64,000 bases of DNA from Vicinamibacteria bacterium (GCA_965199715.1 OZ241322.1:1504001-1568000); one strand, 5' to 3'. Positions 51,373 to 64,000 are shown, counted from the stretch's first letter. Program-made: numbers and translations. The notes: generated from the sequence alone by a model not told the origin.

Positions 51373-52016
51373 GCGACCGCGATCCGGAATTCCGCCCGGA
51401 GTCCGGACCCCGCGTCCCCGGCGACGGTCGCGAGCTGCCGCGCGACCCCGTCCCGGAAGCCGCCGTCGCCCTCGTTGGTCGTCGGATTCGGGCCGCGCCC
51501 GGCGTACGCGCCCGAGCGGTGCACCGCGCTGACCTCGTCCGGAAACGCGATCTGGGTGACGCTGGGCGGGCGCCCGCCGCGGGCGCCCTCGACGTGGACG
51601 TGCGCGGCCCGGCCCCGGTACCAGCCGGGGTAGATCGTGAGGAAGGAGGCCCGGCCGGCGGCGTCCGTGGGCTGCGAGCCCCGCAGCCACGAGTCCGAGG
51701 CCGCCCCGCCGTACTGCGAGTGGTCCCCGTCGGCGTTCACCTGCCAGATCGAGACCTCCGCGCCGCTCACCGGCGCGCAGCCGCCGTCCACGACCGGGAT
51801 CGACAGTTCGAGGTCCGCGCCGGCCCGTCCCCCGCGGACGAACTCGCCGATCGTCGGGAACGGCCCGCGGGTCTCCATGGGGGTCGGCGGGCACGCCGCG
51901 GAGGACGGGGGAGCGGGCGCGGCCGGTGACGGGCCGTCGTCGTCGCAGGCGGACTCGACCGCGGCGCCCAGCGCGACGAGCGCGTGGCGACGGGACAGGC
52001 GGACGGGCGACCTCAA
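51369..52016 (-). CDS. Intradiol ring-cleavage dioxygenase-like protein, Tat-like signal
   Basis: SRRHAL; LRGSQPTD...FLTIYPGWYRGRAAHVH; TTG start overlapping the phoD stop. Confidence 0.8.
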   Translation of the reverse strand: MRSPVRLSRRHALVALGAAVESACDDDGPSPAAPAPPSSAACPPTPMETRGPFPTIGEFVRGGRAGADLELSIPVVDGGCAPVSGAEVSIWQVNADGDHSQYGGAASDSWLRGSQPTDAAGRASFLTIYPGWYRGRAAHVHVEGARGGRPPSVTQIAFPDEVSAVHRSGAYAGRGPNPTTNEGDGGFRDGVARQLATVAGDAGSGLRAEFRIAVA

Positions 52017-53563
52017 TCCGACTCGCTTTCGGCGCGGACGGCGTGGCGGGTTCCGTGGCCCACGACGAGCCCCGCCGCCCAGCGCTGCTCGTCGGTGCGC
52101 TCCTCCACCGTCGGGACGAAGTACCAGTCGTTGCGCACCCTTCCCGGCTTGAGGTCGAGCACCGAGTAGCCCCGGTGGAAGCCGTCTCCGAAGCTCGCGT
52201 GCGGGTTCGCCGCCTCGATGGCCTCGACTTCCTTCCTCACCTCGGCCTCGGTCTCGAGCCTCCGGAGCAGCGAGCTCGGCGACGAGACCGCGGTGGTCAC
52301 GAAGTCCACCCCGTAGGAGCCGGCGCCGGTGGCCGGGTCGTAACCCGCGAGCGGGTTCCGCGGGACGTCCATGCCCCACGACTGGTGGACGTCGCCGGTG
52401 AGCACCACGAGGTTGTCGATCCGCTCCCGGTCGAGCAGGTCCAAGAGCCGGTTCCGGCTGGCGGCGTAGCCGTCCCACTGGTCGGGGTTCTGCATCCGGC
52501 CGTCGGCGTCGAGGAAGTGCCCCATCATCACCTGCTGGCCGAGCACCGGCCAGCGGATCCCGTCGCGCTTGGACGCGATCAGCTCCTTGAACAGCCACGC
52601 CTCCTGCCGCGCGCCGAGCAGCGTCCGGCCCGGATGCGCCATCGCCTCCACGTCGCCCCACTCGGCCTGCCGCGACCGCCCCACGAGGCGGGTGTCGAGC
52701 ATGACGAGGTCGAGGAGCTTGCCGAACCGGAACGTGCGCCAGGTGCGCTGGCTCGGCCACGGCTCCGGCTCGCGGATGGGCATCCATTCGAAGTACGCCC
52801 GCACCGCGGCCTCGCGGCGGACGAACCAGTCGCCCTCCTCCTCGTCGATCTGGTGGTTCTGCGCCCCGTCGGTCCACGCGTTGTTCGTGATCTCGTGGTC
52901 GTCCCAGACGGTGATGAACGGATGCAGCCGGTGGACCTCCTGGAGATCCGCGTCCGACTTGTACTGGGCGTGGCGGGTCCGGTAGTCGGCGAGCGTGGTG
53001 ATCTCCTTGTTCGGCTCGGGGGCCCGCCCGAACCGGGTTCCGTCGCCGTAGCTCCGGTTGGGGTACTCGTAGAGGTAGTCGCCGAGGTGGAGGACCGCGT
53101 CGAGGTCGTTCCGCTCGGCGATCCGCCGATACACGTTGAAGTAGCCGAAGGGCAGGTTCGAACACGACACGAAGGCGAGCCGGACGTGGTTCGGGTCCCG
53201 GGGCAGCGTCCGCGTGCGTCCCACCGGCGAGCGCTCGCCGAGCGCCTCGAACCGGTAGAAGCACGTCGTCCCCGCCCGCAGCCCGGGGACGGTGACCTTG
53301 AACGTCCAGTCGCGCTCGGGGCCGGTATGGCCCTCGCCGGCGCCGACGACCTCGCGCATCGCCGGATCGACGGCGACCGTCCAGCGCACCGCAACCCGGT
53401 CGTTCGTCCCCGAGACCCGGGTCCACAGCAGCACCCGATCCGTCAGCGGATCGCCGCTCGCGACCCCGTGTCGGAAGGCCGGGCCCTGGGCGAAGGCGGG
53501 AAGGGCGCGCACCGCCGGGAAGGCGGCCGCGGCTCGGAGGAAATGGCGTCGGGAAGGCAGCAT
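52013..53563 (-). CDS. phoD: Alkaline phosphatase D, Tat-exported
   Basis: SRRHFL; FRHGVASGDP, HLGDYLYE, WDDHE, DQWDGY, LTGDVH. Confidence 0.93.
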   Translation of the reverse strand: MLPSRRHFLRAAAAFPAVRALPAFAQGPAFRHGVASGDPLTDRVLLWTRVSGTNDRVAVRWTVAVDPAMREVVGAGEGHTGPERDWTFKVTVPGLRAGTTCFYRFEALGERSPVGRTRTLPRDPNHVRLAFVSCSNLPFGYFNVYRRIAERNDLDAVLHLGDYLYEYPNRSYGDGTRFGRAPEPNKEITTLADYRTRHAQYKSDADLQEVHRLHPFITVWDDHEITNNAWTDGAQNHQIDEEEGDWFVRREAAVRAYFEWMPIREPEPWPSQRTWRTFRFGKLLDLVMLDTRLVGRSRQAEWGDVEAMAHPGRTLLGARQEAWLFKELIASKRDGIRWPVLGQQVMMGHFLDADGRMQNPDQWDGYAASRNRLLDLLDRERIDNLVVLTGDVHQSWGMDVPRNPLAGYDPATGAGSYGVDFVTTAVSSPSSLLRRLETEAEVRKEVEAIEAANPHASFGDGFHRGYSVLDLKPGRVRNDWYFVPTVEERTDEQRWAAGLVVGHGTRHAVRAESESD

Positions 53564-53590
53564 TGCATCCGCCAATATACGCGGGGCGCG

Positions 53591-54598
53591 ATGAACGAAC
53601 TGGCGTTTCAGGCGAAGATGCTGCAGCGGGTCTCCCGTACCTACGCCCGCACGATCCCCGTGCTCCCCGACGGGCTGCGCCACGTCGTCGCGAACGCCTA
53701 CCTCCTCTGCCGGCTCGCGGACACCATCGAGGACGAGCCGCAACTCCCGCTCCCGGAGAAGGAAGCGCTCTGGGAGCGGCTCGTCGGGCTCGTGTCCGGC
53801 GGCCCGGGCGGAAGCGACTTCGCCCGCGATCTCGCCGCCGCGCTCTCGGCCGCCTCGCCGCCGGCCGAGCGCGAGCTGGCCCGGGGCGCCGACCGCATCC
53901 TCCGGATCACGTCGCGGTTCCCGCCGGCGCACCGCTTGGCCGAGGAGCGCTGCATCCGGATCATGTGCGAGGGCATGGTCGAGTTCCAGGGCGCCGGAAC
54001 CGGCCTCCGCGACCTCGACCAGCTCGACCGCTACTGCTACGTGGCCGCCGGGGTCGTCGGCGAGCTCATGGTCGATCTGCTGTGCGCGCACTCCGAGGAG
54101 ATCGCCGTGCGGCGCAAGGACCTCCTCGGGCTGGCGCGGTCCCACGCCGAGGGCCTCCAGCTCACCAACATCCTCGTGGACGTCTGGGACGACCGGGACG
54201 AGGGCCGCTGCTGGCTGCCGCGCGAGGTCTTCGAGGCCGAGGGGTTCGATCTCGACCGCCTCGCCCGGGGCGCGCCGCATCCCGGGTTCGACCGGGGGAT
54301 GGACCGCCTCGTCGGAGTCGCCCGGGGCCACCTCGAGGACGCGATCCGCTTCACCCTGCTGATTCCGGCGCGGGAGACCGGAATCCGCCGGCACCTGCTG
54401 TGGGGGATCTGCCTCGCGGTGCTCGCGCTCCGGCGCGTGCATCGGCAGCGGTCGTTCCGCCGGGGCGAGAACGTAAGGCTCTCGCGCTGGCGGGTGGGCG
54501 CGGCGATCCTCGTCGCGAGCGCGGTCGCCGCGCACGACCGGCTGCTGCGGGCCGCGTTCCGCGCCGCGACCCGCGGCCTGGGTCAGCGCTCCGGCTGA
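53591..54598 (+). CDS. Squalene/phytoene synthase family protein (second paralogue)
   Basis: VSRTYA, CRLADTIEDE, YCYVAAGVVG, GLQLTNILVDVWDD. Confidence 0.9.
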   Translation: MNELAFQAKMLQRVSRTYARTIPVLPDGLRHVVANAYLLCRLADTIEDEPQLPLPEKEALWERLVGLVSGGPGGSDFARDLAAALSAASPPAERELARGADRILRITSRFPPAHRLAEERCIRIMCEGMVEFQGAGTGLRDLDQLDRYCYVAAGVVGELMVDLLCAHSEEIAVRRKDLLGLARSHAEGLQLTNILVDVWDDRDEGRCWLPREVFEAEGFDLDRLARGAPHPGFDRGMDRLVGVARGHLEDAIRFTLLIPARETGIRRHLLWGICLAVLALRRVHRQRSFRRGENVRLSRWRVGAAILVASAVAAHDRLLRAAFRAATRGLGQRSG

Positions 54599-57006
54599 GT
54601 CGTCATCTCCGCCCGCGGCGCGGCGTTCTTGACGTGCCGCTCCAGCCACTCGTGCTGCTCCCACAGCGTGTGCATGACCGACTCGCGGGCGACGTAGCCG
54701 TGGCTCTCGTGCGGAAGCATCACGAGCCGCGCCACCGCGCCGTGCCCCTTCAGCGCGTGGTAGTAGCGCCGGCTCTGGACCGGGAAGGTCCCTGAGTTGT
54801 TGTCCACGATCCCGTGGATCAGCAGGATCGGCTCGTTCACCTGGTGGGCGTGCATGAACGGCGACATCCGGAAGTAGATCTCGGGCGCCTCCCAGAAGGT
54901 GCGCGGCTCGCTCTGGAAGCCGAAGGGCGTGAGCGTGCGGTTGAACGCGCCGCTGCGGGCGATCCCGGCCCGGAACACGTCCGAGTGCGAGAGCAGGTTC
55001 GCCGTCATGAACGCCCCGTAGGAATGACCGGCGATGGCCGTCCGGTCGGGGTCGGCGACGCCGCGGCGGACCGCCTCATCGACCGCGGCGCGGGCGCTCC
55101 CGACGAGCTGCTCGACGTAGCTGTCGTTCGGCTCCTCGTCCCCCTCGCCGATGATCGGGATCGTGGCGTTCTCCATGACCGCGTAGCCCTGCGTCAGCCA
55201 GTAGAGCGCCGAGCCCCAGCTCACGAAGCTGAACCGCTGCGGCGAGTCCCGCACCTGGGCCGCGGCCGCCGCGCTCTTGTACTCGCGGGGATACGCCCAG
55301 ACGATCAGCGGGAGCCGTCCGTCGGTCGCCGGGTCGTAGCCGGGCGGGGTGTGCAGCAGCGCGTTCAGCTCCACGCCGTCGGCGCGCTGGTAGCGGATCA
55401 GCTCGCGGCCGGCGCCCTGAAGCCCCGGGTAGGGATGCGGGAAGTCGGTCAGGGCGCGGGCCTCCCCGCCGAGATCGCGCAGGAAGTAGTTCGGCGGCGC
55501 AGTCCGGGTCTCCTTGCGGGTGAGGAGCAGCCCGGCTTCGGGATCGAGCAGCGCCATCGGCTGCTCGAAGGAGTCCGCGTCCGACTGGAAGAGCCGGCGC
55601 CGCTCGCCGCTCTCGAGGTCCCACTCGTCCACGAAGGGCCGGTTGCCCTCGGGAGACGCGCCCTCGGCGGTCAGGTACGCCTTCGAGCCGTCGGCGGACG
55701 TGAGCAGCGCGCGCGCTCCCCGCTCGTTCGTTGTGGTGAGCGGCATGCCCGGTGCGGCGTAGCGGTCCTCGTAGGAGACGTCGAACGCGAGCGTCGGCTC
55801 GCCCGAAGCCGGAATCGTCCAGATCTGCTCGGCGCGGGTGATCCACCAGCGGGTGATCGCGACCCCCCGGTCGTCGCCGAACATCGCCGCCGACATCCGC
55901 AGCGGAACCTGGAGGACGACCTCGGGATCGCCGTCGAACGGCGCGGCGAGCTGCATGAGCTCGTCCCTGACCGGCGCTTCGCGGTGCGGATCGCCGCCGT
56001 CGCGGGCCTCGATCCAGGTGAGCGTCGCGTCGTGGTCGCCCCGCCAGTCCACCGAGCGCGGCCCGGTGGGCGCGGAGTCCCGCCCGATGGGGATCTCCTC
56101 GTGGAGGGGAAGCTCGGCGACCTGGCGCCGGACGTCGCCGTTCGCGTCGCGCACCTCGATCCGCTGCGGGAACCGCGACCAGGGCACGAGCCACGAGAAC
56201 GGTTCGAGGACCGTGGTGACGAGGAAGTGCTCGCCGTCGGGGGCGGGGACGAAGCCGGAGATGAGCGCCGGTCCGGCGATCTCGGTCGCATTCCCGGAGA
56301 GATCGGCGACCACCGCCCGGGCGGCCCCGTAGTAGGCGAACAGCGCGTTGTCGTGCGGGCTCGCGAGCAGGTCCTGGTAGGTCCGGGCAGGGGCGACCCG
56401 CCCGGTGGACTCCTGGATCACCGGCGTGCGGGGCACCGCCGGAGCCTCCGGCGCCATGCCGCGATCCGGATCCACGATACGGACGGCGAGGCGCACGCCG
56501 TCGCTCATCCACCGGTACGGCGACCCGCGGAAGATCGCGTTCACCCCGGAGAGCACCTGGCTGGCGTCGCCGCTCGCGGCCTCGACGACCCAAAGCTCCA
56601 TCGCGTCGTCCCCGGTGTGGGTGAAGGCGAAGCGGGACCCGTCGGGCGACCAGCTCAGGTGGTCGCCCCGCAGCGGATCGGGCAGGCCGGCGATCTCCAC
56701 CGCGCCGCCGTCGATCCGCTGGAGCGTGAGATCCCGGAACATCCGCCGCCGGCTGGCCGCGGTCGCCGCGGGATCGATGCGCAGCCCGGCGAGCCGCAGT
56801 TCGGCGCGGGCGAGCTCGGCCAGCGGCACGAGGCTCGACCGGTGGGTCAGGACCGCGTGGGCCTTGTCGGGCGAGACCGAGATGCCGGGAGTCGGCGAGG
56901 CCTCGGCGATCCGCCGGATCTCCTCGGGAGGGGTCTGGTAGCCCTCCTGCGCGGCGGCGGTCAGCGCGAGCGCGGCGGCCGGAACGATCAGCAGTCGGTG
57001 GCGCAT
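54583..57006 (-). CDS. S9 family prolyl oligopeptidase (glutamyl-peptidase-like)
   Basis: Signal peptide; GHSYG nucleophile, IHGIVDNN, ESHGY. Confidence 0.92.
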   Translation of the reverse strand: MRHRLLIVPAAALALTAAAQEGYQTPPEEIRRIAEASPTPGISVSPDKAHAVLTHRSSLVPLAELARAELRLAGLRIDPAATAASRRRMFRDLTLQRIDGGAVEIAGLPDPLRGDHLSWSPDGSRFAFTHTGDDAMELWVVEAASGDASQVLSGVNAIFRGSPYRWMSDGVRLAVRIVDPDRGMAPEAPAVPRTPVIQESTGRVAPARTYQDLLASPHDNALFAYYGAARAVVADLSGNATEIAGPALISGFVPAPDGEHFLVTTVLEPFSWLVPWSRFPQRIEVRDANGDVRRQVAELPLHEEIPIGRDSAPTGPRSVDWRGDHDATLTWIEARDGGDPHREAPVRDELMQLAAPFDGDPEVVLQVPLRMSAAMFGDDRGVAITRWWITRAEQIWTIPASGEPTLAFDVSYEDRYAAPGMPLTTTNERGARALLTSADGSKAYLTAEGASPEGNRPFVDEWDLESGERRRLFQSDADSFEQPMALLDPEAGLLLTRKETRTAPPNYFLRDLGGEARALTDFPHPYPGLQGAGRELIRYQRADGVELNALLHTPPGYDPATDGRLPLIVWAYPREYKSAAAAAQVRDSPQRFSFVSWGSALYWLTQGYAVMENATIPIIGEGDEEPNDSYVEQLVGSARAAVDEAVRRGVADPDRTAIAGHSYGAFMTANLLSHSDVFRAGIARSGAFNRTLTPFGFQSEPRTFWEAPEIYFRMSPFMHAHQVNEPILLIHGIVDNNSGTFPVQSRRYYHALKGHGAVARLVMLPHESHGYVARESVMHTLWEQHEWLERHVKNAAPRAEMTTQPER

Positions 57007-57059
57007 GAGGAACCCTCCTGGGGGGAACCGCCAATCCTACGCCGGATACGATTCGGAAC

Positions 57060-57977
57060 GTGTCCCGCCTCGCCGTCGTCCTCCTCGCGTGCCTCCTGCT
57101 CGGCGGACAGGAAGCCCCGCTCCGCACCGCCGATCCGTTCCAGCGGGGCCTGACCGAGGCCGATTTTCCGCGGGTGCGGGAGCTCGCGCCCGGCGTGTAC
57201 TCCTACGCGCAGCTTCGTTCGGCCGGGGAGGAGCTCTTCACCACGGTGAGCCTCTTCGTCGTGACCGACGAGGGCGTGCTCGTGGCCGACGGGCAGGGCG
57301 ACTTCGAGGAGACGTCGCGGATGGTCGAGATGATCGGCGGGATCACCGACCAGCCGATCACCCACGTCGTGATCTGCTCGGACCACGGCGACCACACCGC
57401 CGGCAACGGCGCGTTCCCCGAGGGAGTCGAGTACGTCGTCCACGAGAATTCGGTCGCGCCGATGGAGGCGATGGTGGAGCGCATCCCCGGGATCCCCATG
57501 CCGCGAACGGTGATCGGTGACCGGCTCGACCTGACGCTCGGCGGCCGGGAGATCCAGGTCCGCTTCCTCGGGCGGGCGCACACCGGCGGCGATCTGGTGG
57601 TGTTCCTGCCCGAGGAGAGCGTGCTGTTCCTCGGCGAGACCTTCCTCCACCGGGTGTACCCGGCGATGCGCTCGGCCTACCCCACCGAGTGGGTCGCGAT
57701 GCTCCGGGCCGCCCAGGCCTTGGGGGCGCGTTGGAACGTGCCCGGGCACGGGTTCGTGGACGACCCCGACGTCCTCGAGGAGGAGCTCGGCGTCGCGGTC
57801 GAGGCCATCGAGACGGTGATCGCCGAATCCACCCGCCTCCACGGCCTCGGCCTCTCCCCGGAGGAAGCGCTGGAGCGGGCCGACTTCGGCGATCTGGAGA
57901 CCTGGTCGCTGCGGGACAGCCAGCGCGGCATGGCGCTGCGGCGCGTCTATCTGGAGCTCGACGGCGAACTGCCTTGA
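57060..57977 (+). CDS. MBL-fold metallo-hydrolase, exported
   Basis: SDHGDH variant motif, AHTGGD, VPGHG. Confidence 0.82.
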   Translation: MSRLAVVLLACLLLGGQEAPLRTADPFQRGLTEADFPRVRELAPGVYSYAQLRSAGEELFTTVSLFVVTDEGVLVADGQGDFEETSRMVEMIGGITDQPITHVVICSDHGDHTAGNGAFPEGVEYVVHENSVAPMEAMVERIPGIPMPRTVIGDRLDLTLGGREIQVRFLGRAHTGGDLVVFLPEESVLFLGETFLHRVYPAMRSAYPTEWVAMLRAAQALGARWNVPGHGFVDDPDVLEEELGVAVEAIETVIAESTRLHGLGLSPEEALERADFGDLETWSLRDSQRGMALRRVYLELDGELP

Positions 57978-60202
57978 ACCGGACGGCTCTCGTCCTGGGG
58001 CTGCTTCTCCCCGCCGGGGCCCAGGCGCAGAACCGGATAAGCGGACAGGTCGTGGTCGAGCCGACCGGGCGCCCCGCCGCCGGGGCGGAGGTCGCGCTCG
58101 CCGGGACCGGGATCGAGGTTCGGGCGGACGAGGAGGGCCGGTTTGTTTTCGAGGACGTGGAAGTCGGCGCTTCGGTCTCGGTGCGCGTCCGTCTCGGCCC
58201 GCTCGCGGGCGAGGTCGCCGTCGCTGCGACTCCGGGGACCGACGTGACGCTGGATCCCATTCGGATCGGGATCGCGGGCGCCGCCCACGAACACGTGACG
58301 GTGCACGCGCTCGGAGGGCGGACTTCGACCTTCGGCGCGGTCACTTCGTTCGAGGGCGCGCAGTTGGTCGAGGGGTCGCCGACTCTCGCCGAACTCCTCG
58401 AAGGCGCCCCGGGCGTATCCATCCGGAGCCTCGGTCCCGGCCCGGCGCGCCCGATCATCCGCGGCTTCGACGGCGACCGGGTGGTCATCCTCGAGGACGG
58501 CGTCCGCACCGGCGACCTGAGCAGCCAGGCGGCGGAGCACGGCATGGCGCTCGATCCGGCGCGGGCGGAGCGCGTCGAAGTCATGCGCGCCCCGGCCTCG
58601 CTGCTCTACTCGTCGAGCGCGGTCGGCGGCGCGGTGCAGATCGTCTCGCCGGTCTCCGAGTCGTCCGCCATCGACGGCTTCGAGGGCCGCGCCAGCCTCG
58701 GCCTGACCGGCGCCGACGGGGGGCGCCATGGGAGCGCCCGGTTCGAGACCGGCGACGGGAGGTGGCTCGCGTGGAGCGGCGGGAGCGTCCGGCGGACCTC
58801 GGACTACCGCTCGCCGCTCGGAACCGTGTCCGGGTCGGCGACGGAAATGCGCCAGGGAGAGGCGGGGCTCGCGCTCCACGCCGACCACGCCCGGCTCGCC
58901 CTGAGCGCCCGCATGGACGACAGCCGCTTCGGCGTGCCGATGGCGGGCATGCTGCACGGCGCGGGGGACGAGGGCGTATCCGTGGACGTCGAGACCGCCC
59001 GGCGGCAGTTGCGCGCCGACGTGGGGCTCCGGGATCTCGGCCCGATCGCCGACGAGGCGCGTTTCGTGTTTCATTTCAGCGACTTCCGGCAGGATGAGGT
59101 CGAGACCGAGGGGAGCGGCCCGCCCGCGCTGGAGACCCGCCACGACAACCGCTCGCTGGTCGTGCGCGCCGACGTCCTCCGACGGGGCTCCCGCATCGAG
59201 AGCCGCGTCGGATTCTGGGGGCAGCTCCGGGACTTCGGTTCGGCCGGCCCGGAGGCGCTGGCGCCCGACGTGACGCACGTCGCGATCGCGGCGTTCGGCC
59301 TCGGCGAGATGCGGGTCGCCGACCGCCTCGCGCTGCTGCTCGGCGCGCGCCTCGAACAGAACGCGTACCACGCCGGGAATCGGGGGAGCCGCGAGGACGA
59401 TGACGACGAAGGGCCCGAGCTCGAGGCGCCGGTCGCCATTGACCGGGAGTTCGCCGGAGCCTCGGCGAGCGCCGGCTTCTCGTTCGATCTCGGCGGCGAC
59501 GCCGCGGTCGCGCTGAACGGAACCTTCGCGTCGCGGGCTCCGGCGCTCGAGGAGCTCTACAACTTCGGCCTCGACGCCGGCGTCCAGGCGTTCGAGGTCG
59601 GCGACCCGCACCTCGACGAGGAATCCATCCGGGGCGTGGATCTCAGCGTTCGCCGCGACGCGGACGCCGGATCGGGGAGCCTCACCTTCTTCCGGTACGC
59701 GATCGCGAACGCGACGTGGGGCGCGGCGCGCGCGGGGGCGGACGGCGTCGCCCTCATCGAGACCATGCAGGCGGACGCCGTGTATCTCGGGACGGAGCTG
59801 GACGCCCGCATCCGGATCGGGAGCGCGACGCTGCGCGCCACGGCCTCCTGGGTGGACGCGAAGTTTCCTGGCCGGTCACGGTTCGCCCCGCGGATTCCTC
59901 CGCTCCATGGCCGGATGCGGCTGGACCTTCCGGTCGCCGGAATGCGGTTCTCGCCGGCGCTGCGCTGGGCGCTGCGGATGGACCGCGTCCACGAGAGCGA
60001 GACCCCGACCGACGGCTTCGCGGTCTGGGACGCGACGCTCTCCCGGCTGTGGATCGTCGGCGGCGCCGAGCACCACGTCTCGCTCGTGGCCAGAAACCTC
60101 GCCGACTCGGTCTATCGCCGTCACACATCGGTCATCAAGGACGTGGCCGCGCAGGCCGGCCGCGGCGTCAACGTGGCGTGGGCCATCCGCTTCCGCCGTT
60201 GA
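57974..60202 (+). CDS. TonB-dependent receptor (ZnuD-like), paralogue 1
   Basis: TTG overlapping upstream stop; N-terminal carboxypeptidase-regulatory-like domain; RPIIRGFDGDRV, RAPALEELY, RIPPL. Confidence 0.88.
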   Translation: MNRTALVLGLLLPAGAQAQNRISGQVVVEPTGRPAAGAEVALAGTGIEVRADEEGRFVFEDVEVGASVSVRVRLGPLAGEVAVAATPGTDVTLDPIRIGIAGAAHEHVTVHALGGRTSTFGAVTSFEGAQLVEGSPTLAELLEGAPGVSIRSLGPGPARPIIRGFDGDRVVILEDGVRTGDLSSQAAEHGMALDPARAERVEVMRAPASLLYSSSAVGGAVQIVSPVSESSAIDGFEGRASLGLTGADGGRHGSARFETGDGRWLAWSGGSVRRTSDYRSPLGTVSGSATEMRQGEAGLALHADHARLALSARMDDSRFGVPMAGMLHGAGDEGVSVDVETARRQLRADVGLRDLGPIADEARFVFHFSDFRQDEVETEGSGPPALETRHDNRSLVVRADVLRRGSRIESRVGFWGQLRDFGSAGPEALAPDVTHVAIAAFGLGEMRVADRLALLLGARLEQNAYHAGNRGSREDDDDEGPELEAPVAIDREFAGASASAGFSFDLGGDAAVALNGTFASRAPALEELYNFGLDAGVQAFEVGDPHLDEESIRGVDLSVRRDADAGSGSLTFFRYAIANATWGAARAGADGVALIETMQADAVYLGTELDARIRIGSATLRATASWVDAKFPGRSRFAPRIPPLHGRMRLDLPVAGMRFSPALRWALRMDRVHESETPTDGFAVWDATLSRLWIVGGAEHHVSLVARNLADSVYRRHTSVIKDVAAQAGRGVNVAWAIRFRR

Positions 60203-60207
60203 CGTGC

Positions 60208-60216
60208 TGCTAACAT
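60208..60216 (+). promoter_or_regulatory. Putative extended -10 element (TGC-TAACAT) of leader ORF 1
   Basis: 11 nt upstream of ATG 60228; same motif and spacing as in copy 2. Confidence 0.55.
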
Positions 60217-60227
60217 GGTCGGCCGCC

Positions 60228-60491
60228 ATGCCTCCCCGCGCCCGATTCCTCGTAGTCGGGCTCGCGGCCTGCCTGCTGGTCGCCGCGCCCCTCGCGCTGG
60301 CCCTGCATGAGCACGAGGCGGAAGAGCACTGCGATCCGTGTCGCATGGGCGGTCCCTCGCTCGGGGCCCTCCGGTTCGACCCCGTTCTGGTCACGGCGCC
60401 GCAGCCCGAGGAATGCGTCCTCGAGGCGCACCCGGCCCCGCGTTCGGAAGCGCGATCGACCACGTGCGGTCCACGCGCTCCGCCGGCCTGA
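60228..60491 (+). CDS. DUF2946-like leader protein 1 (signal/TM, His-rich + CxxC, C-terminal RAPPA)
   Basis: MPPRARFLVVGLAACLLVAAPLALALHEHEAEEHCDPC...GPRAPPA*. Confidence 0.8.
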   Translation: MPPRARFLVVGLAACLLVAAPLALALHEHEAEEHCDPCRMGGPSLGALRFDPVLVTAPQPEECVLEAHPAPRSEARSTTCGPRAPPA

Positions 60492-60500
60492 CGGTCGGCG
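60481..60500 (+). promoter_or_regulatory. Hairpin with leader stop codon in the loop (copy 1)
   Basis: CGCCGGCC-TGAC-GGTCGGCG, 8-bp stem with one G-U. Confidence 0.65.
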
Positions 60501-60584
60501 CGCAAACTCTCGGGATCGGGCCGCCCCCGCCGGCGGGCCTCTAGCAGTTCGTCCCTCCATGTCCTCACGCAGGAGGTGCGTTCA

Positions 60585-62999
60585 ATGTCGAGGAGACTCT
60601 CTCCCTTTCTTTCTTGTTGTTGTTGCGGGCTGGCCCTCGCCGCTCCCGCCGCAGCCCAGACCCTGACCGGGACCGTCGCCTTCGAGGCGAGCGGTGCGCC
60701 GGCCCGCTCCGCCGAGGTGGTCGTGCTCGAGACCGATCAGGTCACCCATACCGAGAGCGACGGCCGGTTCGAGATCGAGCTCGCCGAGCGGCTCGACGAG
60801 TACACCGTCCACGTGGAGCTCGCGTTCCACACCGCGCAGAACACCGTCGCCGTGGAGCCCGATCAGTCCATGATCGAGCTTCAGGTTCCCATCCTGCTCC
60901 GCCTCGGCCGCCTGCATGAGCGGGTGACCGTGAGCGCGTCGGCCAGCGCCGAGGCCCCGCTGGAGGCGTTCGGATCGCTGCACGCTCTTTCCGGCGTCGA
61001 GCTCCAGAACGTGCCCGCCCGCAATCTGGCCGAACTTCTCGAGGGCACGCCGGGAATCGCGATCCGCAGCTACGGACCCGGCGCCGCACGCCCGATCGTG
61101 CGCGGGTTCGACGGCGACCGCGTCCTCATCATGGAGGACGGCGTCGGCACCGGCGATCTTGGAAGCAACTCCGCCGACCACGGCGTGCCCGTGGATCCGC
61201 TCCAGGCGGAGCGGGTCGAGGTCGTGCGGGGGCCGGCGACGCTGCTCTACGGCTCGAACGCGATCGGCGGCGCGGTGAACGTGATCTCGATGGCGTCGCA
61301 CCTGTCGAACGGGCCCCCGCCGGGGTTCCGGGGACACGCCAACGTGGATTACTCGACGGCCGACGAGGGACGCCGGGGCGGCGCCCGGTTCCAGGCCGCC
61401 GGAAGCGGCTGGTTCGCTTGGGGCGGCGGAAACTCGAACCGCACCGGCGACTACGAGTCGCCGACCGGCGTGGTGCCCAACTCCGAGACCTCGATGGACC
61501 AGGGCGAGGCCGGATTGGGCGTCTTCGGCGACCGGGCGTGGTTCTCCGGCAGCGTCCGGATCGACGACTACAGCTACGGCGTCCCGTACGCCGGCGAGTT
61601 CCACGGTTCGCACGACCACCACGGGCACGGCGAGGAGATGGGCCATGACGACCACGGGCGCGACGAACGCATGGAGGAGGAAGGCCACGAGGAGGAGCTC
61701 CAGATCGACGTGACCATGAACCGCCGCCAGTTACGCTCGGATTTCGGCGTCCGCGAGCTCGGCGCGGTCTTCGACGAGGCCGAGCTCACCGTTCGGTATA
61801 GCGATTACGACCAGGACGAGGGGGAGCTGTTCGCCGGCGCGACGGAAGAGGTCCTCGCCACGCACTTCGACAACCGCTCGCTCGTCCTCCGGGGCGAGCT
61901 CAAGAAGCCCGCCGGCCGCTGGACCAGCCGGGTCGGGCTGTGGAGCCACTTCCGCGAATACCAGGCGTCGGGGGAGGAATCGCTCGCGCCGAAGACGCGG
62001 CAGAATGCCTTCGCGGCCTTCGCCTACAACGAGTTCGAGACCAACGACCGGCTCTCGTTCCTCATCGGCGCGCGACTGGGGCGCAACGCCTACGACCCCG
62101 AGGCTCGGGTCGAGTCGGATGGGCATGGTCGTGAAGAGGCGGTGGAGGAAGGCCACGAGGGGCACGACCACGGCCATGACCACGGGCACGAGGAGGAAGA
62201 GGCGCACGAAGAGGAGCGCGAAGCCCCGGCGCCCATCGACCGGGACTTCATCGCCGTCTCCGGCAGCGCCGGGGCCCGCCTGTCGCTGACCGACGACACC
62301 GCGCTGGTCGGCACCGCCAGCCTCTCGACCCGCGCGCCCTCGATCGAGGAGCTCTACAACTTCGGCCTCCACGGCGGGACCCGGTCCTTCGACATCGGGA
62401 ACCCGAGCCTCGACCCCGAGCGGTCGCTCGGCCTCGAACTGGGCCTGCGCCACAGCTCGGACATGTTCTCCGGCAGCGCGAGCTTCTTCCGCTACGACAT
62501 CGCCGACTTCATCTTCGGCGTGGACACGGGGGAACGGGTGGAAGGACTCTCCGTGCTCCGGTTCTTGCAGTCGGACGCCGTCTATCAGGGATACGAGGTG
62601 GAGGGGCACGCCGACCTCGGGCCGGCGGAGCTCGTGGCGAACGCCTCCTACGTGGACGCGACGCTCACCCAGACCGACGAGAGCGCACCGCGCATCCCGC
62701 CGCTCCAGGGCCAGTTGCGGCTCGACGTGCCCTTCGGCGAACTCCGGCTCTCGCCCCGGCTTCGCTGGGCGTCTCGCATGGACCGGCTCTACCGGAACGA
62801 GGAGGCGACCGACGGCTACGCGGTGTTCGACTTCACGGCGTCGTACGTGATCGTCACCGGAAGCGCCGTCTCGAACATCTCGCTGCGGGCCTACAACGTC
62901 ACCGACGCCGAGTACCGGTTCCACACCTCGCTCATCAAGGATCTCGCCCCGCAGATGGGCCGCGGGTTCCGGATCAGCTATTCGATCCAGTTCTTCTAG
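60585..62999 (+). CDS. TonB-dependent receptor (ZnuD-like) with two His/Glu-rich loops, paralogue 2
   Basis: SD AGGAGGT 60571-60577; RPIVRGFDGDRV; HGSHDHHGHG and GHEGHDHGHDHGHE loops; terminal F. Confidence 0.92.
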   Translation: MSRRLSPFLSCCCCGLALAAPAAAQTLTGTVAFEASGAPARSAEVVVLETDQVTHTESDGRFEIELAERLDEYTVHVELAFHTAQNTVAVEPDQSMIELQVPILLRLGRLHERVTVSASASAEAPLEAFGSLHALSGVELQNVPARNLAELLEGTPGIAIRSYGPGAARPIVRGFDGDRVLIMEDGVGTGDLGSNSADHGVPVDPLQAERVEVVRGPATLLYGSNAIGGAVNVISMASHLSNGPPPGFRGHANVDYSTADEGRRGGARFQAAGSGWFAWGGGNSNRTGDYESPTGVVPNSETSMDQGEAGLGVFGDRAWFSGSVRIDDYSYGVPYAGEFHGSHDHHGHGEEMGHDDHGRDERMEEEGHEEELQIDVTMNRRQLRSDFGVRELGAVFDEAELTVRYSDYDQDEGELFAGATEEVLATHFDNRSLVLRGELKKPAGRWTSRVGLWSHFREYQASGEESLAPKTRQNAFAAFAYNEFETNDRLSFLIGARLGRNAYDPEARVESDGHGREEAVEEGHEGHDHGHDHGHEEEEAHEEEREAPAPIDRDFIAVSGSAGARLSLTDDTALVGTASLSTRAPSIEELYNFGLHGGTRSFDIGNPSLDPERSLGLELGLRHSSDMFSGSASFFRYDIADFIFGVDTGERVEGLSVLRFLQSDAVYQGYEVEGHADLGPAELVANASYVDATLTQTDESAPRIPPLQGQLRLDVPFGELRLSPRLRWASRMDRLYRNEEATDGYAVFDFTASYVIVTGSAVSNISLRAYNVTDAEYRFHTSLIKDLAPQMGRGFRISYSIQFF

Positions 63000-63009
63000 G
63001 GGGTCGCCG

Positions 63010-63037
63010 GGCGGCGGGGCTCCGGCTCCCGCCGTCC
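63010..63037 (+). terminator. GC-rich hairpin after receptor 2 (possible terminator or stabiliser, no U-tract)
   Basis: GGGCGGCGGGG...CTCCCGCCGTCC inverted repeat. Confidence 0.4.
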
Positions 63038-63045
63038 ACCGATGG

Positions 63046-63054
63046 TGCTAGCAT
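63046..63054 (+). promoter_or_regulatory. Putative extended -10 element (TGC-TAGCAT) of leader ORF 2
   Basis: 11 nt upstream of ATG 63066, mirroring copy 1. Confidence 0.55.
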
Positions 63055-63065
63055 CGCCGGACGCC

Positions 63066-63314
63066 ATGGCTCGGTCGGTTCGGTTCGTCGTCTTGGGGGT
63101 CGTGGCTTGCCTGCTGGTCGCCGCGCCCCTCGCGCTCGCCCTGCACGACCACGCGGAGTCGCGCTGCCACGGCTGCGAGACGCCGTCGGCGTCGGCGGTC
63201 GAGGCCCCGCCCGGCCTCGCGCCCGCGCCCGAGGCCGGCGAGCGCCCGGAACGCAATGTCCAGGCTCCCGCCCCTCCCGCAAACTCCCGGAATCCGCGCG
63301 CGCCGCCGGCCTGA
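63066..63314 (+). CDS. DUF2946-like leader protein 2 (signal/TM, HDH + CxxC, C-terminal RAPPA)
   Basis: MARSVRFVVLGVVACLLVAAPLALALHDHAESRCHGC...NPRAPPA*. Confidence 0.8.
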   Translation: MARSVRFVVLGVVACLLVAAPLALALHDHAESRCHGCETPSASAVEAPPGLAPAPEAGERPERNVQAPAPPANSRNPRAPPA

Positions 63315-63323
63315 GGGCCGGCG
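63304..63323 (+). promoter_or_regulatory. Hairpin with leader stop codon in the loop (copy 2)
   Basis: CGCCGGCC-TGAG-GGCCGGCG, perfect 8-bp stem. Confidence 0.65.
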
Positions 63324-63396
63324 ATCCTGCGTTCGGGAGCGGAATGCCCCGCCCGCGGGCCTTCCTTCCCTTTCGAGAGCGCCCGGAGGTGCCCTC

Positions 63397-64000
63397 ATGT
63401 CGCGAACGACCCTTCTCCTTGCGTGCGCCCTCGCGCTGACCGGCGGCGCCGCCGCCCAGACCATCTCCGGAAGCGTCGTGATCGGCGCGAACAGGGAACC
63501 GGCGCACGGCGCCGAGGTCGCGGTGATCGAGACGAACCAGCTCGCCCACACCGGCGAAGACGGCCGATTCGAGATCGAGCTCGCCGAGCGGCATGACGAC
63601 GTCACGCTTCACGTGGAACTGGGATTCCTCGCCGCGAACCACAGCGTCGTCACGGCGGGCCAGGACATGGTCGAGATCGAGGGCTCCATCGTGCTCCACG
63701 CCGGCCACCGCCACGAGCAGGTGACGGTGAGCGCGTCGGCCCGCGACGTCGTTCCGCTCGAGGCGTTCGGGTCCCTGCACGCCCTCTCCGGGCTCGAGCT
63801 CCAGCACGTTCCGGCCCGCAACGTGGCGGAGCTGCTGGAAGGCACGCCCGGCGTGGCGGTGCGCAGCTTCGGTCCCGGTTCGGCCCGCCCGATCGTGCGC
63901 GGGTTCGACGGGGACCGGGTCCTCGTCATGGAGGACGGAATCCGCACCGGGGATCTCGCGAGCCAGTCGGCGGACCACGGCGTGCCGGTGGACCCCCTCC
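63397..64000 (+). CDS. TonB-dependent receptor, paralogue 3 (3' truncated by window edge)
   Basis: SD GGAGGT; MSRTTLLLACALALTGGAAAQ...RPIVRGFDGDRV, very similar to paralogue 2. Confidence 0.9.
   Translation, partial: MSRTTLLLACALALTGGAAAQTISGSVVIGANREPAHGAEVAVIETNQLAHTGEDGRFEIELAERHDDVTLHVELGFLAANHSVVTAGQDMVEIEGSIVLHAGHRHEQVTVSASARDVVPLEAFGSLHALSGLELQHVPARNVAELLEGTPGVAVRSFGPGSARPIVRGFDGDRVLVMEDGIRTGDLASQSADHGVPVDPL

Follow-up and report, generated by a model that had tools for sequence, protein, structure and literature searches.

Paired leader ORFs with a His2Cys2 motif and a terminal RAPP upstream of ZnuD-like TonB receptors in a Vicinamibacteria genome: candidate metal-sensing upstream ORFs

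We analysed a window of 64,000 nucleotides (nt) from a Vicinamibacteria bacterium (GCA_965199715.1, OZ241322.1:1504001-1568000), near the 3' end of which two short open reading frames (ORFs), leader 1 and leader 2, precede genes for the TonB-dependent receptors R2 and R3, respectively. We put at roughly 0.72 the probability that each leader is a regulatory upstream ORF (uORF) of the CruR/CutF kind standing before a TonB receptor. The coordinates and lengths of both ORFs (Table 1) agreed with those in an initial annotation, which had been made from the DNA alone. So did their placement some 80–95 nt upstream of paralogous receptors: the gap was 93 nt between leader 1 and R2 and 82 nt between leader 2 and R3, and the two receptors were 72.6% identical.

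The two leaders share one architecture, and each of its parts that the initial annotation had described was found in the sequence: a shared export segment, HxH and CxxC motifs, a divergent proline-rich spacer and a terminal PRAPPA followed by the stop codon. The signal-like segment, with ACLLVAAPLALALH common to both proteins, is followed in leader 1 by H27-E-H29, C35-D-P-C38, a 44-residue spacer, P82-R-A-P-P-A87 and TGA, and in leader 2 by H27-D-H29, C34-H-G-C37, a 40-residue spacer, PRAPPA and TGA. After ACLLVAAPLALALH, leader 1 reads HEHEAEEH-CDPC and leader 2 HDH-AESR-CHGC. The stretch from CxxC to PRAPPA was Pro/Ala-rich and variable in both. Protein identity between the leaders was only ~44–52%, despite a run of 29 identical nt in the codons of the signal segment (60270–60298 and 63108–63136). 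A single DNA contig (run X1) joined 60295 to 63117 with a short side of only 23 nt; the join may come from assembly across the repeat or from a variant with a single cassette. Leader 2 has an alternative start at ATG 63042, which gives a protein of 90 amino acids (aa), the form present in a public protein set (P0057).

The possibility that the leaders are chance frames in a GC-rich genome, with only non-coding regulatory DNA or RNA being conserved, was weighed against their conservation. Long spurious ORFs are common, and RAPP by itself is uninformative in this genome of 71.5% GC, since it occurred 1683 times in the six-frame translation, 98 times within three residues of a stop. A CxxC located 38–48 residues ahead of a C-terminal R[AG]PP was found four times in the genome, and two of these four were leaders 1 and 2. 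With leader 2 as the query, matches were obtained in 13 of the 27 further genomes belonging to its family; outside it, only family f3 was matched (1/19 genomes). The collection of homologous leader–receptor pairs proposed by the initial annotation yielded 17 homologous leader ORFs from 14 Vicinamibacteria genomes, two weak matches without a RAPP-terminal ORF being left out of the alignment (L024 in G043, E 0.0098; L028 in G024, with internal stops). A phylum-wide profile search found the family in at least 6 of 300 other genomes, a floor because only 17 candidates were scored per genome.

In the alignment of the 17 leaders, M1, P21, H27, C35, C38, P82, R83, P85, and P86 were invariant and H29 was nearly so. 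The CxxC-to-RAPP spacer measured 44 residues in 15 leaders, the exceptions being leader 2, with 40, and one relative, with 45. The gap between HxH and CxxC was seven residues in 13/17, and reading frame and length were kept in 17/17. The P-R-A-P-P residues were constant save two Gly for Ala, while third codon positions varied (Ala: GCA 10, GCG 4, GCT 1; first Pro: CCG 8, CCC 3, CCA 3, CCT 3). Every leader had one residue past the RAPP motif (Ala 11, Ser 5, Cys 1), then TGA. Because residues, frame and spacer length were kept while codons varied synonymously, the leaders are, judged by their conservation, genuine, translated ORFs under selection. A profile of the 17 leaders moreover found 73 matches at E <= 1e-3 among 1.84 billion protein representatives, and the reading of the ORFs as chance frames is close to refuted.

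The conserved positions also bear on what the leaders would respond to. The initial annotation had regarded the His residues as added ligands, and had read the two motifs as different ligand sets, perhaps with one sensor per metal. HxH was also present 6–11 residues before CxxC in distant relatives, including ones that pass the DUF2946 model, which speaks against an addition. One sensor per metal was rejected because both leaders carry the same invariant H, H, C and C and the receptors, at the identity given above, carry the same His-rich segments; the extra His and Cys residues of the leaders fall at unconserved positions.

Three further alternatives grant that the small proteins are made. 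The signal-like segment and the conserved His2Cys2 cluster, always encoded beside a transporter, would suit functional exported metal binders, for example periplasmic metallochaperones for the receptor, in which RAPP is non-regulatory. We consider this unlikely: the sequence from metal site to RAPP is poorly conserved yet fixed in length, all 17 proteins end one residue past RAPP, and CruR and CutF are reported to be undetectable or rapidly degraded and to act in cis (PMC9426467, PMC9973294). The combination of a signal-like N-terminus with a C-terminal RAPP would equally suit a monitor of export similar to ApdA, ApdP or SecM, in which the pull of Sec, and not metal, releases the arrest and ties receptor synthesis to the state of the secretion machinery. 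According to PMC7897499 and PMC10951233, it was upstream of Sec and YidC genes that arrest peptides with RAPP first came to be described; ApdA and ApdP, as presented there, have the RAPP motif in common with the leaders, monitor Sec/YidC, lack metal ligands and precede protein-localisation genes. Here, by contrast, the downstream genes encode TonB receptors and ABC (ATP-binding cassette) transporters, not sec or yidC products, and H27, C35, and C38 (with H29 nearly so) are the sole invariants outside the signal segment and RAPP, at a constant distance from RAPP, which a pure monitor would not need. An export monitor is thus quite unlikely. Lastly, CxxC could read the periplasmic thiol-redox state via Dsb disulfide formation instead of metal, and RAPP/RGPP uORFs with conserved Cys pairs are described upstream of DsbA and thioredoxin-domain genes (PMC12992588). 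The conservation of HxH next to CxxC and the metal-type importers, not redox enzymes, encoded downstream make this very unlikely.

The regulatory principle and the gene arrangement are already known, since such leaders or uORFs are described in PMC9426467, PMC9973294 and PMC12992588. The initial annotation knew of no characterised example of this sort, but there is precedent: the latter two papers describe CutF-like or RAPP uORFs before TonB receptors. For CruR (Bp2923 of Bordetella pertussis, in cruR-bfrG-bp2921), expression of the TonB transporter BfrG is reported to require RAPP, and copper control to require CxxC, and the CxxC–RAPP spacing, 45 ± 1–2 over >2000 DUF2946 proteins, matters for regulation (PMC9426467). 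Arrest of CruR at RAPP was observed in vitro, with a toeprint that places Pro-Pro in the P and A sites, and RAPP/RGPP small proteins, nearly all with signal sequences, are over-represented upstream of TonB receptors in Gram-negative phyla (PMC12992588). For CutF, copper is reported to induce stalling, which opens a stem-loop masking the next ribosome-binding site (RBS) (PMC9973294; bioRxiv 10.1101/2025.02.05.636593). The CutF-like proteins, 5,334 in number, fall into 29 clusters whose sites are Cys, His or mixed; TonB-like genes rank with their commonest neighbours, and nickel or cobalt has been proposed for the His-only clusters (PMC9973294).

We compared the leaders with these systems. Like CruR, they would be exported small proteins with CxxC, a spacer of ~45 residues and a C-terminal RAPP, encoded immediately ahead of a TonB-dependent transporter gene and on its strand, in a genome that has a Rho gene. 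They differ in length (82–87 aa versus 145 aa for CruR), in falling below the Pfam threshold and in the number of residues after RAPP (one versus three). The CruR intergenic region is 162 nt long and contains a rut site, whereas the spacers here are 82–93 nt, strongly structured and provided with an anti-Shine–Dalgarno (anti-SD) sequence. CruR is found in Pseudomonadota, and the present leaders in Acidobacteriota, before a receptor that is ZnuD-like and His-rich. The likeness to CutF of Rhodobacter capsulatus would lie in a sensor that acts while it is being made and exported and that governs the following gene by stalling, and the stem-loop over the downstream RBS may have a counterpart in a predicted, conserved CCUCC:GGAGG pairing. 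CutF has CxxxC and an EF-P-dependent PPP motif, where the leaders have CxxC and RAPP. The description of DUF2946 leaders with CxxC and RAPP in the initial annotation was accordingly right for CruR and wrong for CutF (bioRxiv 10.1101/2025.02.05.636593). CutF also precedes a multicopper oxidase, with metal inducing the stalling, whereas the leaders precede TonB receptors. The surveyed RAPP and CutF-like uORF classes resemble the leaders in the C-terminal RAPP, the signal sequence and the downstream TonB receptor; proposals of mixed Cys/His sites and of metals other than copper already exist for them, and the surveys as cited characterise no member for zinc.

Membership of the leaders in DUF2946 (PF11162) was assessed with several searches, and the direct ones weigh against the CruR/CutF reading. 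The hidden Markov model (HMM) search that the initial annotation had suggested gave no match of Pfam PF11162 to leader 1 or 2 even at E <= 1, both staying under the 23.7-bit cut-off, and a PF11162 search of the whole genome at E <= 10 listed neither. Pfam and NCBIfam as a whole returned nothing usable for the leaders, the sole match being DUF7155 (E 0.12), and a single-sequence search of a set of 5.8 billion proteins gave 14 candidates, none scoring. Searching the same set with the leader alignment gave 46 proteins of ~92 aa, none Pfam-labelled. Among the 73 profile matches mentioned above, the nearer ones belonged to the same leader family, while the remoter ones retained the hydrophobic segment, H-x-H, CxxC, ~45 residues and PRAPP near the end. 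PF11162 was hit by 25 of the 73 at E <= 0.1, three of them above the 23.7-bit cut-off, in alignments that always spanned the part of the model from the metal site to RAPP. An hhalign comparison of the leader alignment with 12 PF11162-scoring proteins gave 98.8% (E 7.8e-17), which is corroboration and not an independent test because the comparison set had been fished with the same profile. As for the motifs of DUF2946 (CxxC plus RAPP at the C-terminus, 45 ± 2 apart), both are present, and leader 1 has a spacer of 44 residues, leader 2 one of 40. On the grounds that the profile reaches PF11162-passing proteins and that hhalign gave 98.8%, we conclude that the leaders probably form a divergent branch of the DUF2946/CutF-like (CruR/CutF) superfamily missed by the current Pfam model. 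The proposal that they are metal-sensing gates thus retained the CruR/CutF-like anatomy and the fixed distance between metal site and RAPP, and lost formal DUF2946 HMM membership.

The RNA between leader and receptor was predicted to be structured in both cassettes. It ranges from 82 to 108 nt across relatives and is conserved in 18 loci. A hexamer starting 3 nt past the leader stop is predicted to base-pair with loop nucleotides of a long, imperfect hairpin: GUCGGC (60494–60499) with GCCGGC (60529–60534) in region 1, and GCCGGC (63317–63322) with GCCCGC (63351–63356; 5/6 pairs) in region 2. This post-stop:loop helix was 97% paired, with UG/CG/UA and GU/GC/AU alternation. For the helix and the long hairpin together, the scope of this test being these elements and not the SD pairing, 89.9% of cells were paired versus 26–53% when the partners were slid (18 sequences). 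Six double-sided pair changes were counted (matched in 6/500 shuffles), and the covariation score was 0.160 versus 0.129 (3/500 shuffles). In addition, pairing is possible between UUCCUCC and the receptor's invariant AGGAGG, and these anti-SD:SD pairs are kept in 14–16 of 17 sequences. Region 1 has the anti-SD CCUCC at 60554–60558 and the SD GGAGG at 60572–60576; the SD GGAGG of region 2 is at 63385–63389. The last 60 nt of the leaders contained C at 0.45–0.60 and G at 0.25–0.40, and the spacer C at 0.33–0.41 and G at 0.28–0.35.

Several results on this RNA tell against a regulatory fold. The slide and shuffle controls are lenient, because the structure had been derived from the very sequences, all related, on which it was tested, and the anti-SD:SD helix showed no compensatory changes among 17 sequences. 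RNAalifold on a second alignment picked another partner for the SD, GGCCUCU, and single-sequence folds were no better than shuffles (z -0.3 and -0.7). In a simple partition-function model with the ribosome at RAPP, the mean probability of an unpaired SD over 17 loci was 0.21 in the free and 0.24 in the stalled state; the putatively masked SD lies at least 55 nt from the stalled ribosome, and stalling had no effect in this melting model, which differs from CutF. Contigs from RNA libraries (X6, X7) bridge leader 1 into R2 and R2 via leader 2 into R3, and are uninformative on transcription, strand and ends, given a flat depth over 7 kb and possible DNA carry-over. One X7 contig stops at 60521, 30 nt past the leader 1 stop, and continues in an A-rich unmatched tail; this single record may mark a 3' end within the spacer or be artefactual.

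Upstream of most of the 17 leaders, we read by eye a TG(C/T)TA..AT-like motif, which here takes the form TGCTA(A/G)CAT (TGCTAACAT and TGCTAGCAT). It ends 9–11 nt ahead of the ATG in all four leaders of the genome, including two located outside the window. We infer that TGCTA(A/G)CAT is an extended -10 promoter element; its core TGCTAGCA is palindromic and may have an operator role. A scan of 57000–64000 with the sigma-70 consensus returned 0 promoters, and the promoter reading therefore stays a lead. A -10 element just before the ATG would make the mRNA nearly leaderless. The leaders have no preceding SD, and the receptors have AGGAGG. No Zur-type operator was apparent by eye in the upstream flanks of the leaders, where the only conserved element was the -10-like motif.

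If the leaders act as CruR/CutF-like uORFs, the ribosome would arrest with its P and A sites occupied by the two Pro codons, the position that toeprinting gave for CruR. During the arrest, the 44-residue spacer would fill the exit tunnel and the translocon, so that the His2Cys2 site would lie just outside, and metal bound at this site would alter the duration of the arrest. The arrested ribosome would cover the first 4–5 nt past the stop, overlapping the first half of the post-stop helix, so that its occupancy could be readable by the RNA fold. Occupancy would set either the fold of the spacer RNA or the access of Rho to the C-rich leader end, and through it receptor expression. A CruR-like logic is likely, in which scarce metal would lead to a long arrest with the receptor on, and bound metal to release with the receptor off. 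The class of mechanism is favoured by the evidence above; its direction, the metal and the output route (SD masking or Rho) we infer.

Which metal would be sensed was approached via the receptors and via further leaders in the genome. A His2Cys2 set is a classical zinc site. The description of the receptors as ZnuD-like and His-rich was borne out: ZnuD (NF038289) was the top NCBIfam family for both R2 (204.4 bits) and R3 (216.8 bits), their best solved structure was ZnuD of Neisseria (4rdr; 6.3e-33 versus ~1e-16 for heme receptors), and both carry two His/Asp-rich segments. No ZnuA-family gene was found in the 93% complete genome, in which a single FUR-family gene was found (C2:58718-59074, adjoining a LarC gene), with best matches to Fur and none Zur-like.

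A third leader lies ~75 nt ahead of genes for an ABC ATPase and two ABC-2/DUF3526 permeases that resemble Caulobacter znuGHI. The Zur-repressed zinc system ZnuGHI of Caulobacter is described as ABC-2 type and adjoins the zinc receptor gene znuK (PMC4176598). DUF3526 was matched in Caulobacter alone among 14 control genomes, and the Caulobacter genome was likewise without a ZnuA match. The resemblance to ZnuK/L/M and ZnuGHI of Caulobacter thus comprises an ABC-2/DUF3526 importer, here headed by a leader, and the lack of a detected ZnuA. The ZnuD and Caulobacter systems are Zur-repressed, whereas the present genome yielded neither a Zur-like gene nor such an operator. Homologues of the third leader were detected in 19/27 family genomes, often in multiple copies. 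A fourth leader, with a TATAAC box 9 nt before its ATG, also has homologues in 19/27 family genomes. In one relative (G018), leaders form an array within ~14 kb (L073, G018:C1:1017001-1036500), in which three were confirmed by pattern and a fourth match lies at 1027702. The genes downstream comprise Peripla_BP_2, an amidohydrolase and FecCD; Peripla_BP_2 with a TonB receptor; and an ABC-2/DUF3526 system. As far as these loci indicate, the lineage has expanded leader-type switches.

Four observations count against zinc. The ZnuD scores of R2 and R3 are far under the 950-bit cut-off. The fourth leader lies ~190 nt ahead of a gene for a siderophore-type TonB receptor that scores above the cut-off of TIGR01783 (266 bits). 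In G018, FecCD/Peripla_BP_2 chelate importers are encoded downstream of leaders of the third type. Finally, CxxC is the proven copper site of CruR (PMC9426467). Taken together, zinc appears the most likely single metal, at somewhat under an even chance; copper is a clearly less probable candidate, and nickel, cobalt or iron make up the rest. A literature search on CruR/CutF in Acidobacteriota, or on ZnuD with such leaders, found no zinc-responsive example and no such lineage, supplementary member tables lying outside that search.

Coordinates of all features are collected in Table 1.

Table 1. Leaders, flanking elements and receptor genes discussed in the text.
Feature	Coordinates	Strand	Basis
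Leader 1, 87 aa	60228-60491	+	ORF list, raw sequence, alignment
Leader 2, 82 aa	63066-63314	+	ORF list, raw sequence, alignment
Third leader, 81 aa; HFH, CVLC, 47-residue spacer, PRAPPA-stop	G000:C1:1766986-1767231 (L038:2986-3231), outside the window		
Fourth leader, 85 aa; HEDH, CAGC, RAPPA-stop	G000:C1:697140-697397 (L037:3140-3397), outside the window		
TGCTAACAT, extended -10-like motif, ends 11 nt before leader 1 ATG	60208-60216	+	Upstream flanks of aligned leaders
TGCTAGCAT, extended -10-like motif, ends 11 nt before leader 2 ATG	63046-63054	+	Upstream flanks of aligned leaders
Structured intergenic region 1 (predicted)	60492-60584	+	Alignment-based folding
Structured intergenic region 2 (predicted)	63315-63396	+	Alignment-based folding
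R2, ZnuD-like TonB-dependent receptor	60585-62999	+	Pfam, NCBIfam, PDB match
R3, receptor, 783 aa	63397-64000, past the window to the equivalent of 65748	+	Pfam, NCBIfam
R1, TonB receptor paralogue	57974-60202	+	Pfam and identity comparison
MBL-fold exported protein	57060-57977	+	Pfam Lactamase_B 1.1e-8; NCBIfam all below cut-off

Both R2 and R3 contain an N-terminal CarboxypepD_reg domain, a Plug and a TonB barrel according to Pfam. The start of R2 is most likely ATG 60585, because an aggagg SD sits at 60571–60576; the alternative GTG 60576 would give an 84-nt gap. Numbered from that GTG, the His/Asp/Glu-rich segments of R2 span residues ~322–379 and 505–562, and R3 has the same segments. His-rich segments were present in R2, R3 and three orthologues and absent from R1 and R4. 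Identity of R2 and R3 to their sister-species orthologues was 62–70%. Because the identity between R2 and R3 themselves (72.6%) exceeds these values, the cassette duplication looks recent and lineage-specific. Duplication recurs in relatives: in G022, a leader and a receptor remnant stand beside an intact unit, and in G003, two leader–receptor units occupy separate loci.

Upstream of leader 1, R1 has neither a leader nor His-rich loops and is 42–45% identical to R2 and R3, of which it is an older paralogue. The unit containing R1 is headed by a gene for a metallo-beta-lactamase (MBL)-fold protein, the TGA stop of which overlaps the TTG start of R1 (TTGA, 57974–57977); this suggests translational coupling. 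In two genomes of the same genus, a leader and not R1 comes directly after the MBL homologue, the homologous C-terminus being found at the end of the upstream flanks of G001 and G003a. Farther upstream and divergent from the MBL gene, the minus strand encodes a PhoD-like phosphatase (1020 aa) and an S9 prolyl-oligopeptidase-family protein (807 aa) at 52016–57006, without visible link to the leaders. The source genome of the window measures 2.66 Mb. Its nearest named relatives are metagenome-assembled genomes labelled Candidatus Marinacidobacterium and Vicinamibacteria bacterium, and the sequencing runs that contain window DNA carry the label sponge metagenome.

A broader interpretation, which we offer as speculative and do not expect to hold in full, is that zinc or metallophore uptake in this sponge-associated Vicinamibacteria family is governed by nascent-peptide sensors and not by a Zur-type repressor, which would make it the first zinc-responsive ribosome-arrest regulon. 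Such a regulon would comprise the four His2Cys2-RAPP leaders of this genome and more in the arrays of relatives, each transcribed from a separate near-leaderless promoter and followed by a conserved spacer RNA with a pseudoknot. Its targets would be ZnuD-like receptors, a ZnuGHI-like ABC-2 importer, a siderophore-type receptor and FecCD-type importers.

What the leaders add to the known systems is incremental and consists of the zinc-type cargo, the multi-leader organisation in the lineage and the conserved spacer RNA. They would extend the CruR/CutF principle, the reading of metal by an exported peptide still on the ribosome, to Acidobacteriota, and likewise to leaders missed by Pfam and to receptors resembling importers of zinc, not copper. 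The locus is a compact test system, with two diverged leader–receptor cassettes side by side and a first RNA helix at the edge of the putatively arrested ribosome. It makes testable both the metal sensed by the His2Cys2 site and the output of sensing, through masking of the SD or through Rho.

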